Part shown: positions 35,632 through 43,066 of the stretch, piece by piece
How positions within the stretch are numbered: the stretch's first letter is position 1
Layout: each line of letters opens with the position of its first letter
Assembly: GCF_003334765.1 (NCBI RefSeq)
Contig: NZ_QOWT01000024.1
DNA from: Escherichia coli
GTDB taxonomy: Bacteria; Pseudomonadota; Gammaproteobacteria; Enterobacterales; Enterobacteriaceae
Direction: 5' to 3' (one strand)
DNA length: 59,926 nt
The notes under the pieces: model-generated
What the model was told of the DNA's origin: nothing
The model's database searches: none
The model's input: the letters and a program-made list of their open reading frames with translations, nothing else
Position numbers and translations under genes: made by a program

Positions 35632-35710
35632 GCCCGATGCGCTGCGCTTATCGGGCCTTCATGGTTCGTGCGACATGTAGGCCGGATAAGGCGTTCACGC
35701 CGCATCCGGC
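35632..35710. repeat. BIME: two inverted REP elements between hycI and ascB
   Basis: Degenerate REP palindrome at 35632-35656 and canonical REP GTAGGCCGGATAAGGCGTTCACGCCGCATCCGGC at 35677-35710. Confidence 0.85.
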
Positions 35711-35718
35711 ACTGTTAC

Positions 35719-37143
35719 CTACTCTAAATCTTCCCCATTACTGGCAATCACTTTTTTATACCACCAGAATGATTTCTTACGCGTGCGCGTCAGCGTACCG
35801 TTGCCTGCGTCGTCACGGTCAACAAAGACAAAGCCGTAGCGTTTGCTCATTTCACCCGTAGAGGCGGAAACTAAATCAATACAGCCCCATGTGGTGTAGC
35901 CCATCAGCGGAATGCCGTCTGCAATCGCTTCGCCCATTGCGCGGATATGTTCGCGTAAGTAGCTGATGCGATAGTCGTCGTTAATCTCGCCATTGGCAGC
36001 AAATTCATCTTTTGCGCCCAGGCCGTTTTCCACCAGAAACAGCGGCTTCTGATAACGATCGTACATCATATTCATGGTGATACGCAGACCGAGTGGATCA
36101 ATTCCCCAGCCCCAGTCGCTCACCTGTAGATACGGATTACGCAGCGATTTCACCACGTTCGCCGCACTGCTGTTGTTGGCGTTCATCTCCGCCGAGGCGC
36201 AGCGCGAGGCGTAATAGCTGAAAGAGACAAAATCGACGGTGTTTTTCAGGATTTCATCATCGCCCGGTGCTTTGTTGATGGTTACCCCTTTTTCGCGGAA
36301 TACGCGGGCAGAGTAAGCCGGATACGTGCCCCGCGCCTGCACATCGATAAAAAACAGGTTTTCCCGGTCTTTCTCCAGCGCCGCCCAGACATCTTCCGGC
36401 TTGCAACTGTAAGGGTAGAAGTTACCGCCCGCCAGCATACAGCCCACCTGATTTTGCGGGTTAACCTCATGGGCGATTTTGGTGGCTAGCGCACTGGCAA
36501 CCAGCTGGTGATGCGCGGCCTGATATTTCACCTGATCCTGATTTTCACCTTCTTCAAACACCAGACCCGCGCCGGAGAACGGGCTATGCAACATAATGTT
36601 GATTTCATTGAAGGTTAGCCAGTATTTCACCAGACCATCAAATGCTTCAAAGCAGGTTCTGGCGTAGCGGCTGAAAAACTCCACCAGCTTGCGGTTACGC
36701 CAGGAGCCATATTCGGTGACCAGATGCATCGGCACATCGAAGTGGCACAACGTGACCAGCGGTTCGATACCGTACTTTTTACACTCTTCAAAGACAGAAC
36801 GATAAAAAGCAATGCCCTGCTGATTGGGCGTGATTTCATCGCCCTGCGGAAAGAGACGGCTCCAGGCAATTGAGGTACGGAAAACCTTGAATCCCATCTC
36901 TGCCATCAGGGCGATATCTTCTTTATAACGATGATAAAAATCCGTCGCCTCATGGCTGGGATAAAACTCGTCATCTCGCAACTGAAAACGTTTTTCCAGC
37001 CCCAGTTTCACCGCCATTCGATGCTCGCCGTGTGGGATCATATCGACAGTGGTCAGACCTTTGTCACCTTCACGGAACGCACCTTCAGACTGGTTGGCGG
37101 CAAGCGCGCCGCCCCATAAAAAACTTTCTGGAAATACTGACAT
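35719..37143 (-). CDS. ascB: 6-phospho-beta-glucosidase (GH1)
   Basis: ORF track extends to 37155; N-terminus [13 protein letters not shown] gives 474 aa; GH1 motifs NEI and ENG. Confidence 0.9.
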
Positions 37144-37151
37144 TTTCATCC

Positions 37152-38609
37152 TCAATTAAGACTTACTTCTTTGGCGACGGTCGGTTGTACGCTCTGATAC
37201 TTTCGCGCCTGGGCAGCCGCTTCCTCAACAGGAATATCCTCAAAGCCGAGCAACAGTGTGAGGATAAACGACAGCACCACCGCCAGCGCCATGACCGCGA
37301 ACACCCAGACGATGCTCATTGGATTCGCCGGATCGAAGAACTGCACGCTGGTAAATAGCCCCGGCGCTGCCATTGAGTGGCTGGCAAGCCCCGCCATACC
37401 GGCAACCGCGCCGCAAATAAAACCGCTGATAAGACTGGCGATAAGCGGACGTTTCAGGCGGATCGCCACGCCATATAACGCCGGTTCGGAAATCCCCGCC
37501 ATAATGGCTGATGCCGCCGCAGCCAGCGCCGTCTGACGCAGTTCCGGGTTTTTCGTTTTCCACGCCACTGCCAGTGATGAACCGCCCAGCGACAGGTTAG
37601 CGCCGATCTCTGACGGCATGACCATCCCTTCTTTGCCGGTTTCGGCAATGGTCTGAATGATGGTTGGCGTAAAGACGCGGTGCATCCCGGTCATTACCAG
37701 CAGAGGCCACAGCGCGCCCATAATGGCGACTGAAAGCCAGCCCAGATAACCATGAATGGTGTAAACCAGCGCCGAAATGGCGCTACCGATCCAGATACCA
37801 ATCGGGCCAATCAGCAGGATTGCCAGCGGTGCGGCAATCAACACAATCAGCATTGGTTTGAGGAAGTTTTTGGTCACCGCCGGTGTAATGCTGTCCACCC
37901 AGCGTTCGATATATGACAGGCACCAGGTCATCACCAGCGCCGGGATCACCGTGTAGGTGTATTTCACCGCGGTGACCGGAATCAGGGCAAATTCGACATG
38001 TTCACCCTGGGCCGCTTTCGCCATCAGTTCAATAAAACTCGGATGTACCAGCACACCCGCGATGGCAATCGCCAGCGACATATTGGTTTTAAATTTGATG
38101 GCGGCAGATGCCGCGACCATCAGCGGCAGGAAGAAGAAAGCACCGTCACCAATCACATTCAGAATGGTTAAGGTCGGCGATCCTTTTGTCAGCACGCCGC
38201 TCATCTCGAGGATCATTGCCAGCAGTTTGACCATCGATCCGCCGATAATCGCCGGGATCAGCGGTGACATGGTGCCGATCAGCGCATCGAGGATCCCCGC
38301 ACCAATGCGACGTAGCGTGAGTTTGGGTTTACCCACGGGCTGTGCGGGCTGCATATCTCCCGGCAGCAGGCTGACGACTTCCTGAAAGGCTTGTGAAACG
38401 GTATTGCCGATAATCACCTGACACTGGTTGTCACTACGTACCACGCCGAGCACGCCGGGGATGGTTTTTAACGTCGGGCTGTCGATAAGTGCATCATCTT
38501 TGATAACAAAGCGCAACCGCGTCATACAGTGCGTGACCGCCGAGATGTTATCAACGCCGCCCAGTGCCGCTATCACCGAGCGTGCCAGCGCCGCATAATT
38601 TTTGGCCAT
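37152..38609 (-). CDS. ascF: PTS beta-glucoside (arbutin/salicin/cellobiose) EIICB component
   Basis: 485 aa ORF with N-terminal EIIB motif (CMTRLR) and membrane EIIC domain. Confidence 0.9.
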
Positions 38610-40555: not shown

Positions 40556-40707
40556 AAATCTTACAGAACTGTTCTGGCATCAAAGGAATTCCCGGAAATA
40601 TTCGTAGAATACGGAGCGGGCGGTATCGCCGACCTGTGACTGCCGGATGCGACGCTGTCGTGTCCGGCAGGGCGGGTTACGCAATTCATGATGGCGGGAA
40701 TAACTCA

Positions 40708-42960
40708 ATGGCAAAAAACACATCTTGCGGTGTCCAACTGCGTATTCGTGGCAAAGTGCAGGGCGTCGGTTTTCGTCCGTTTGTCTGGCAGCTGGCACAG
40801 CAATTAAATCTTCACGGCGATGTCTGTAATGACGGCGATGGCGTAGAAGTCCGGCTGCGGGAAGACCCGGAAACGTTTCTTGTTCAATTGTATCAGCACT
40901 GCCCGCCGCTGGCGCGTATTGATAGCGTCGAGCGTGAGCCGTTTATCTGGTCACAACTGCCCACCGAGTTCACTATACGCCAGAGCACAGGCGGCACCAT
41001 GAATACGCAAATTGTTCCCGATGCCGCTACTTGCCCTGCTTGCCTTGCCGAAATGAATACCCCAGGCGAACGGCGTTATCGTTATCCGTTTATCAACTGT
41101 ACCCGCTGCGGCCCGCGTTTCACCATTATTCGCGCCATGCCTTACGACCGCCTGTTTACCGTGATGGCGGCGTTTCCGCTATGTCCGGCCTGTGACAAAG
41201 AGTACCGTGACCCGCTCGATCGTCGCTTCCACGCCCAGCCGGTGGCCTGCCCGGAGTGTGGCCCGCATCTTGAATGGGTAAGTCATGGTGAACATGCGGA
41301 ACAAGAGGCGGCATTACAGGCAGCTATCGCACAGTTAAAAATGGGCAAAATTGTCGCCATCAAAGGGATTGGCGGATTTCATCTTGCCTGCGATGCACGT
41401 AACAGTAACGCGGTGGCGACACTTCGGGCGCGCAAACATCGCCCGGCGAAACCGCTGGCGGTCATGTTGCCAGTGGCTGACGGTTTACCAGACGCTGCGC
41501 GCCAGTTGCTTACCACGCCCGCCGCGCCGATTGTGCTGGTGGATAAAAAATACGTTCCTGAGCTTTGTGATGATATCGCCCCTGACCTTAACGAAGTCGG
41601 GGTAATGTTGCCTGCGAACCCGCTCCAGCATTTGCTGTTACAGGAACTGCAATGCCCGCTGGTGATGACCTCCGGCAACCTGAGCGGTAAACCACCAGCT
41701 ATCAGCAACGAACAGGCGCTGGCGGATTTGCAGGGCATTGCCGACGGATTCTTGATACATAACCGCGACATCGTGCAGCGGATGGATGATTCGGTGGTGC
41801 GCGAAAGCGGCGAAATGCTGCGCCGTTCGCGGGGGTATGTGCCGGATGCGCTGGCTTTGCCTCCGGGCTTTAAAAATGTTCCGCCTGTGCTGTGTCTCGG
41901 CGCGGATCTGAAAAATACCTTCTGCCTGGTGCGCGGTGAACAAGCGGTGTTGAGTCAGCATCTGGGCGATTTAAGTGACGATGGCATCCAGATGCAGTGG
42001 CGCGAAGCGTTACGCCTGATGCAAAACATCTACGATTTTACCCCGCAATACGTTGTGCATGACGCGCATCCGGGCTATGTCTCCAGCCAGTGGGCGCGTG
42101 AAATGAATCTGCCGACGCAAACGGTACTGCATCATCATGCCCATGCAGCGGCGTGTCTGGCAGAGCATCAGTGGCCGCTGGATGGCGGTGATGTCATTGC
42201 TTTGACGCTCGACGGTATCGGTATGGGGGAGAACGGCGCTTTGTGGGGCGGCGAGTGCCTGCGGGTGAACTATCGCGAATGTGAGCACCTGGGCGGCTTG
42301 CCTGCAGTGGCGCTTCCGGGTGGCGATTTGGCAGCGAAGCAGCCGTGGCGAAACCTGCTGGCGCAGTGCCTGCGCTTTGTGCCGGAGTGGCAGAATTACT
42401 CTGAAACAGCAAGTGTGCAACAGCAAAACTGGAGCGTGCTGGCGCGGGCCATTGAGCGTGGAATTAACGCGCCGCTGGCGTCATCGTGTGGGCGTTTTTT
42501 CGATGCAGTGGCGGCGGCACTGGGCTGTGCGCCAGCCACGTTAAGTTATGAAGGTGAAGCGGCTTGTGCTCTGGAGGCGCTCGCAGCCTCATGCCACGGA
42601 GTGACGCATCCGGTGACAATGCCGCGGGTGGACAATCAACTGGATCTCGCCACTTTCTGGCAGCAGTGGCTGAACTGGCAGGCACCGGTTAATCAACGCG
42701 CGTGGGCGTTTCATGATGCGCTGGCGCAGGGTTTTGCCGCGTTGATGCGTGAGCAGGCCACGATGCGTGGTATCACTACGCTGGTATTTAGCGGCGGGGT
42801 TATTCATAACCGTTTGCTGCGTGCACGTCTGGCGCATTATCTCGCTGATTTCACATTGCTCTTTCCACAGAGTTTACCGGCGGGTGATGGCGGTTTGTCT
42901 CTGGGGCAGGGGGTTATTGCTGCGGCGCGTTGGTTAGCGGGTGAAGTCCAGAACGGATAA
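40708..42960 (+). CDS. hypF: Hydrogenase maturation carbamoyltransferase HypF
   Basis: ORF track starts 40636; recognised N-terminus [27 protein letters not shown] (acylphosphatase domain) begins at 40708, giving 750 aa; two zinc-finger CxxC pairs, YrdC and Kae1-like domains. Confidence 0.95.
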
Positions 42961-42984
42961 AACGTGTTGCATTTGGACACCATT

Positions 42985-43066
42985 GCCGGATGCGGCGTAA
43001 ACGCCTTATCCGGCCTACACATGCGTCCCCGTAGGTCGGATAAGACGCGCCAGCGTCGCATCCGAC
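42985..43066. repeat. BIME: two inverted REP elements between hypF and norW
   Basis: GCCGGATGCGGCGTAAACGCCTTATCCGGCCTAC at 42985-43018 and inverted GTAGGTCGGATAAGACGCGCCAGCGTCGCATCCGAC at 43031-43066; near-reverse-complement of the copy at 35677-35710. Confidence 0.85.

Follow-up and report, generated by a model that had tools for sequence, protein, structure and literature searches.

Local variation of two repetitive extragenic palindrome pairs flanking the asc-hydN-hypF block of Escherichia coli

Two REP pairs in the gaps between convergent genes

The 59,926-nt stretch of the Escherichia coli contig NZ_QOWT01000024.1 analyzed here (hereafter the window, by which we mean the whole stretch) contains two pairs of repetitive extragenic palindromes (REPs), each pair forming a bacterial interspersed mosaic element (BIME). 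The two BIMEs bracket a block consisting of the asc locus and the hydN and hypF genes, and each lies in a short 3′-3′ gap between convergent genes, hycI and ascB on the left and hypF and norW on the right, so that all four REPs are extragenic and located between convergent stop codons. A first-pass annotation of the window had described this bracketing by inverted copies, and the gene order hycI(+) ascB(-) ascF(-) ascG(+) hydN(+) hypF(+) norW(-) agrees with it. As detailed below, no sampled genome shows recombination between the two BIMEs. The locus comprises the following features.

35090..35560, plus strand: hycI, the left outer gene, convergent with ascB
35632..35659, plus strand: short degenerate REP GCCCGATGCGCTGCGCTTATCGGGCCTT, partner of the left Y REP; its foot reads GAAG, not GTAG, on the complementary strand
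35660..35676: linker of the left BIME, CATGGTTCGTGCGACAT; 17 nt, tail-to-tail, without an integration host factor (IHF) consensus
35677..35710, minus strand: left Y REP, GCCGGATGCGGCGTGAACGCCTTATCCGGCCTAC in minus-strand reading; starts 8 nt past the ascB stop codon
35719..39879: asc locus, with ascB (35719-37143, minus strand), ascF (37152-38609, minus strand) and ascG (38869-39879, plus strand)
40028..42960, plus strand: hydN (40028-40555) and hypF (40708-42960)
42985..43018, plus strand: right Y REP, GCCGGATGCGGCGTAAACGCCTTATCCGGCCTAC; starts 24 nt past the hypF stop codon
43019..43030: linker of the right BIME, ACATGCGTCCCC; 12 nt, short, tail-to-tail, without an IHF consensus
43031..43066, minus strand: Z2-like REP, GTCGGATGCGACGCTGGCGCGTCTTATCCGACCTAC in minus-strand reading; its head lies 21 nt past the norW stop codon
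43088..44221, minus strand: norW, the right outer gene, convergent with hypF

The longest inverted pair returned by a repeat finder for the window has arms at 35676-35714 and 42981-43019, which are 39 nt long, differ by two mismatches (95% complementary) and are separated by 7,266 nt. Consistently, a 34-nt Y-REP pattern, GCCGGATGCGGCGTRAACGCCTTATCCGGCCTAC, has exactly two matches in the window, at 35677-35710 (minus strand) and 42985-43018 (plus strand), and no match in any of 100 dinucleotide-preserving shuffles of the entire 59,926 nt. The generic REP core, defined as GATGCG-N6-20-CTTATC, occurs three times, compared with 0.11 expected occurrences, and all three are at these two sites; apart from a REP-like hairpin at 49544-49572, no REPs were found in the window beyond them. 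The repeat finder and the pattern matches thus bear out the canonical REP and the near-identical inverted copy that the first-pass annotation had recognized. Its other observations on the repeats were equally sound: a divergent second REP does lie beside each copy, with extents of 35632-35659 and 43031-43066, and the two sites encode the same peptide, CRPDKAFTPHPA, on the left in a plus-strand frame and on the right in a minus-strand one.

The Y REPs are 34 nt long and the Z2-like REP 36 nt, the short left REP being just 28 nt. Each Y stem is an imperfect palindrome in which GCCGGAT pairs with ATCCGGC and GGCG with CGCC, the GC opposite TT between them forming a 2-nt mismatch. Three of the four REPs carry the GTAG foot, which reads GTAG on the plus strand at 35677-35680 and 43031-43034 and CTAC at 43015-43018. 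The two Y copies differ by one base in the loop (GTGAAC versus GTAAAC) and in their flanks, and their longest uninterrupted identity is 20 nt; between REPs of one site and like-oriented REPs of the other, the shared identity does not exceed 8 nt. The closest REP is 71 nt away from the stop codon of hycI, 8 nt from that of ascB (35719-35721), 24 nt from that of hypF and 21 nt from that of norW (43088-43090). RNA folds of each BIME on either strand have predicted energies of -41 to -52 kcal/mol, with z scores of -3.5 to -5.8 relative to shuffles. A scan for consensus terminators returned no intrinsic terminator at either BIME and the REP stems are not followed by a U-tract, which rules out classical intrinsic (Rho-independent) terminators, since the hairpins lack a T-run. 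No Rfam family matches at either element, and the feature table of strain MG1655 lists no repeat features. Loop lengths vary, and a REP pattern whose loop was fixed at 5 nt accordingly had no match in the window; a looser pattern with fixed spacing gave one chance match inside ascF.

E. coli REPs have been described as imperfect palindromes of 30-40 nt with a GTAG foot, falling into the types y, z1 and z2 (Ton-Hoang et al., PMC3333891), and the stem bulge of a REP is formed by two conserved mismatches (Corneloup et al., PMC8266576). BIME-1 combines z1 and y over a long linker with an IHF site, BIME-2 combines z2 and y over a short linker and is tandemly repeated, and atypical BIMEs are chimeras of the two (PMC3333891). 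Both Y copies in the window correspond to Y-type REPs, or palindromic units, without substantive difference: they match the canonical Y exactly or almost exactly, with the GTAG foot, the 34-nt length and the 2-nt bulge, and they are extragenic members of a many-locus repeat, situated at the 3′ ends of genes. The right element is a one-unit BIME-2, in which Y and Z2 are arranged tail-to-tail over a 12-nt linker; two or four tandem units are present at this site in other strains, whereas the window carries a single unit, and the internal Y copies have decayed in multi-unit alleles. The left element, in which a 17-nt linker joins a short, degenerate REP to a Y REP, is classed as an atypical BIME or a relic pair. 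It shares with atypical BIMEs the combination of a Y REP with an oppositely oriented REP and a linker and composition that vary among strains. It differs from them in that the partner is neither Z1 nor Z2, resembling instead a shorter type, GCCCGGTGGCGCTGCGCTTACCGGGC, found at the same junction in Trabulsiella, and in that the GTAG foot of this partner has been lost in the window. The left site likewise falls outside the definition of BIME-2, its partner REP not being a Z2. BIME-1 was rejected for both sites, given linkers of 17 and 12 nt in which the IHF consensus WATCAANNNNTTR is absent even when one mismatch is allowed.

Junctions between the two sites

The first-pass annotation had proposed that the inverted REPs could mediate inversion or deletion of the intervening block. 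All E. coli allele and junction counts reported here were obtained by searching 5,426 complete E. coli genomes with query sequences, and the comparison with relatives relies on 80 loci from other Enterobacteriaceae recovered with HypF. The inversion queries represent the junctions expected from an exchange between the Y REPs: J1 joins hycI and Y to the reverse complement of the hypF end, and J2 joins the reverse complement of the ascB end to Y, Z2 and norW, presence being called at 80% query cover or more. The deletion query joins the end of hycI straight to the end of norW.

Neither inversion junction was detected (0/5,426 genomes for J1 and 0/5,426 for J2), the best cover of 52% corresponding to one flank only. 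In strains that carry the higBA island described below, an inversion would yield about 58% cover of J1 and take the top rank, and none such was present among the 5,426. The junction of a whole-block deletion was also found in 0/5,426 genomes, and no sampled genome lacks hydN and hypF, as such a deletion would require. The interval is collinear over at least 80% of its length in 4,694 of the genomes, and most of the others match an allele without asc (722 genomes, determined with a separate query). Furthermore, gene order and orientation are unchanged in all 41 loci of other Enterobacteriaceae in which both flanks are available and in all 54 that contain asc. Inversion of the block through the inverted REPs is therefore not supported, the J1 and J2 counts and the 41 collinear loci all speaking against it, and the same holds for its deletion, in view of the missing junction and of the short identity between REPs in direct orientation. 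What stands of the first-pass description of these canonical REPs as BIMEs is their identity and their mirror orientation around asc-hydN-hypF; the recombination role does not. The comparison of hycI-norW synteny across E. coli that it had suggested as a check did uncover indels beside and within the BIMEs, none of them joining the two BIMEs. The interval is thus not completely conserved in the literal sense, and its variation is local to each BIME or internal to asc.

The mirror symmetry of the two BIMEs is without special meaning. The two Y copies are inverted relative to each other on the chromosome because each adjoins the stop codon of an inner gene in the same sense on the transcript, and ascB and hypF point outwards. 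Moreover, any two BIMEs offer both inverted and direct REP pairs, since every BIME holds two REPs of opposite orientation. Nor are the two Y copies special partners, because REP queries match many places in a genome, the REP portion of our queries having a median of at least 39 matches per E. coli genome. REPs have been reported as junction hot spots for laboratory-selected duplications, amplifications and some inversions (22 of 90 junctions), the junction homologies of 5-20 bp being treated as too short for homologous recombination (Lin et al., PMC3161906). REP-mediated chromosomal rearrangements, such as the join points of duplications and amplifications or the formation of F′128, involve the same kind of substrate as that present here. 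They differ in being mostly direct-repeat duplications and deletions or microhomology events recovered under strong selection, and none joining these two BIMEs occurs among the 5,426 genomes. As for an invertible segment bounded by inverted repeats, the block is found in one orientation only, and the 20-nt identity between its ends falls in the 5-20 bp range treated as too short; the genes annotated between the BIMEs or next to them (hyc, asc, hydN, hypF and nor) include no recombinase.

Alleles of each BIME and loss of asc

The arrangement of hycI, BIME and ascB seen in the window is shared by 2,758 of the 5,426 genomes. A segment of about 19 nt covering the left linker (window 35660-35678) exists in both orientations, TCATGGTTCGTGCGACATG in the window versus ACATGTCGCACGAACTATG in strain M11 (L008:2599-2625); a 56-nt query counted 2,847 genomes with the window form and at least 450 with the flipped one. 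This flip is a micro-inversion bounded by inverted REP tails. The linker is deleted in locus L007, the short left REP has an intact CTAC/GTAG foot in L008, L010, L012 and L015, and the left Y REP is cleanly absent from ET625 (L006), the number of left alleles without a Y REP being ambiguous owing to overlapping query pieces.

Accessory DNA is found both beside and inside the left BIME of other strains. In 1,614 genomes, an island of about 1.65 kb lies between hycI and the left BIME and encodes a hypothetical protein of 250-251 aa, the toxin HigB and the antitoxin HigA. Its site, which is empty in the window, falls between positions 35590 and 35611 (L003:1504-3148), and its right edge is about 20 nt from the short REP. 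Partial islands contain either higBA only or the hypothetical gene and higA only; the protein of about 250 aa has no significant family match. In the 722 B2-type genomes, which include ST131 and O6:K2:H1 among others, a segment of about 630 bp separates the short REP from the loop of the Y REP, only half of which is left. This segment, located at L001:2140-2770 (ST131) and L002:3180-3790 and corresponding to window 35660-35692, carries a minus-strand gene for a 145-aa protein and has hairpins of its own; a search of Pfam and NCBIfam with the protein gave no significant match.

On the right, the gap between hypF and norW measures 77 bp in strains without REPs, 127 bp with one unit, about 221-225 bp with two and 419 bp with four. 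In MG1655 it extends between hypF (2835173) and the end of norW (2835045), and ET625, K-12 and M11 are examples of strains with differing natural alleles. It should be noted that a two-unit query has the same coverage on one- and two-unit alleles, as its pieces overlap, so that the REP-less allele is the only one that can be cleanly counted. The REP-less allele (L006:9452-9543, corresponding to window 42925-43087) has a different 3′ end of hypF, with the last codons changed and the gene 12 nt shorter, and its gap holds a GC hairpin, CCCTCGCCC-TTT-GGGCGAGGG. Local variation of this kind, in unit number and linker, has been reported for BIME-2 and for atypical BIMEs (PMC3333891). Mildly new, and specific to this locus, are the linker flip, the gene inside the B2 BIME and the REP-less hypF-norW allele.

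The larger changes in the interval concern asc. The 722 B2-type genomes lack window 35776-39873, that is, most of ascB and all of ascF and ascG, and this deletion does not run from REP to REP. In other Enterobacteriaceae, asc occupies the hycI-hydN interval in 54 of the 80 loci, including those of Citrobacter, Klebsiella, Raoultella, Kluyvera and Kosakonia, which indicates that its presence at this position is old. It is missing from 20 loci that hold hycI, among them those of Salmonella, E. albertii, E. whittamii and Buttiauxella. Three deletions in Escherichia could be delimited in window coordinates.

35662-39839: asc deletion in E. whittamii
35757-39873: asc deletion in E. albertii
35776-39873: asc deletion in B2-type E. 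coli

The left breakpoints accordingly fall at 35661, 35756 and 35775, and the right ones cluster at the end of ascG, between 39840 and 39874 (L010, L013 and L001). The left endpoint in E. whittamii (35661/35662) coincides exactly with the tail of the short REP. None of the deletions extends to the right BIME, and short remnants of ascB or ascG persist after the loss. Escherichia has lost the asc operon on at least three separate occasions, with these differing left breakpoints.

At one junction or at both, REP pairs also occur in other Escherichia species, Citrobacter sp. Awk 4, Pseudocitrobacter and Salmonella, in each case with a local REP flavour. Every sampled Escherichia species for which the junction sequence is available carries a BIME between hypF and norW, namely E. 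albertii, E. whittamii and two further Escherichia loci. The same comparison revealed other differences in spacing. The hydN and hypF genes are about 2.2 kb apart in Phytobacter, Kluyvera, Kosakonia, Pseudocitrobacter and Buttiauxella (L027-L042 and others), whereas about 150 bp separates them in E. coli, and several non-Escherichia genera contain an additional 1-5 kb between hypF and norW.

Interpretation of the two elements and adjacent observations

Collectively, these results make it very probable that the two elements are independent, ordinary copies of the REP/BIME repeat which reside in the 3′-3′ gaps of convergent genes and undergo change that is local to each, with none between them. 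The REP/BIME feature is already known and of low interest in itself. REP stem-loops at 3′ ends stabilize upstream mRNA and can terminate or insulate transcription (PMC3333891), ribosomes are stalled and translation is reduced by REPs that follow a stop codon by 15 nt or less (Liang et al. 2015, cited in PMC12306157), and BIME-2 elements are enriched in gyrase cleavage sites, mostly in their Y REPs and independently of transcription (PMC6379681). By analogy with this literature, each REP, or the whole BIME, would fold stably into a stem-loop at the 3′ ends of the convergent mRNAs and would buffer these ends. The nearest REP falls within this 15-nt distance at ascB (8 nt), and not at hycI, hypF or norW; the Y REP that follows ascB may lower its translation, and the right Y/Z2 pair would be the kind of site that DNA gyrase binds. 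TnpA-REP cleaves and recombines GTAG-bearing REPs in vitro (PMC3333891, PMC8266576), and any mutation of GTAG abolishes its activity (PMC8266576). Gain and loss of REPs could plausibly proceed through TnpA-REP activity or through replication slippage or template switching in hairpins. Over evolutionary time each BIME alters locally, in the number of units, the presence of REPs and the deletion or flipping of the linker, as does the adjoining accessory DNA.

Several observations weigh against this interpretation and particularly against its functional part. The REP-less hypF-norW allele is carried by 685 genomes, some strains lack the left Y REP, and the junction gaps of Kosakonia and Trabulsiella, 0-52 bp in length, are without Y/Z-type REPs; whatever role the BIMEs have is therefore dispensable. 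The supplementary data of three papers, those on gyrase included, contain no entry on transcript 3′ ends, gyrase or AscB expression for these sites. Finally, complete genomes reveal fixed alleles only, and rare, transient inversions inside a culture would be invisible in them.

An alternative reading holds that the BIMEs, and above all the left one, act locally as hot spots for illegitimate recombination or template switching and so shape which DNA is gained or lost beside them, the two sites not interacting. We consider this a reasonable possibility that falls somewhat short of being probable. The left linker found in both orientations (2,847 versus at least 450 genomes), its deletion in L007 and the clean absence of the Y REP in L006 are all consistent with it, as are the 630-bp segment inside the left BIME of 722 genomes, the E. 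whittamii deletion that begins at the tail of the short REP, the proximity of the higBA island edge to that REP, and the occurrence of zero, one, two or four units in the right BIME. BIMEs have also been called a major source of intergenic polymorphism, in the title of a work cited in PMC3333891. However, any 3′-3′ gap tolerates indels, and breakpoints would cluster there without REPs too; the remaining asc breakpoints fall within ascB and where ascG ends, outside the REPs, and each variant may represent one old event inherited by a clade. A more specific proposal, which we put forward tentatively, is that exchange between inverted REP arms may operate inside a single BIME, not between the two, making BIMEs flip-and-break hot spots that give rise to local structural alleles; it draws on the two orientations of the left linker and on the left BIME being an endpoint of both the E. 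whittamii deletion and the B2 insertion.

It is rather unlikely, in our estimation, that the REPs are nothing more than selfish, non-autonomous mobile elements, spread by the TnpA-REP (RAYT) transposase and without host function at this locus. The presence or absence of REPs at both sites within E. coli, the distinct REP variants that different genera carry at the same junctions and the in vitro action of TnpA-REP on GTAG REPs would all fit such a view. Against it, the hypF-norW BIME is found in all sampled Escherichia species that have this junction, and is hence old and retained, and published work links REPs to mRNA stability, translation and gyrase; the selfish and host-function views are, in any case, mutually compatible. 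Recombination between the inverted Y REPs that inverts or removes the 7.3-kb asc-hydN-hypF block is highly improbable, for although the inverted 39-nt pair is real, REP junctions are hot in laboratory selections (22/90; PMC3161906) and a right Y with the GTGAAC loop, as in L001, would have a longer match to an intact left Y (in L001 itself, only half of the left Y is kept), the perfect identity in the window is just 20 nt, inverted repeats produce inversions and cannot delete a block, direct-orientation REPs across the sites share no more than 8 nt, and the sampled genomes offer neither the J1, J2 or deletion junctions (0/5,426 each) nor a loss of hydN and hypF, the 41 loci from other species being collinear throughout.

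With the speculative rearrangement hypothesis removed, two independent BIMEs that vary locally carry little wider significance. The locus documents known BIME behaviour over 5,426 genomes, the elements being stable landmarks with changing internal make-up and surroundings. The natural alleles (zero, one, two or four units, Y present or absent, linker flipped) could be useful controls for experimental work on REP function, for instance on mRNA 3′ ends, ascB translation or gyrase binding.

Two further observations concern the sequence around the locus. Over 13.5 kb, the window differs from MG1655 at 37 positions, 35 of which are clustered in norW-norV (window 43547-45349, about 1.9% divergence), the remaining two being in hypF; hyc, asc, hydN and both BIMEs are identical. 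The divergent part looks like an imported recombination tract that would start about 480 bp past the right BIME. The right BIME was considered as the boundary of a recombination tract and rejected, because divergence from MG1655 begins about 480 bp beyond it. The small REP-like hairpin at 49544-49572, TGCCTGATGAGCG-TA-GCGCATCAGGCA, is perfectly paired, lacks the CTTATC and GTAG parts of canonical REPs and lies between the minus-strand open reading frames 49617-50396 and 49153-49512.

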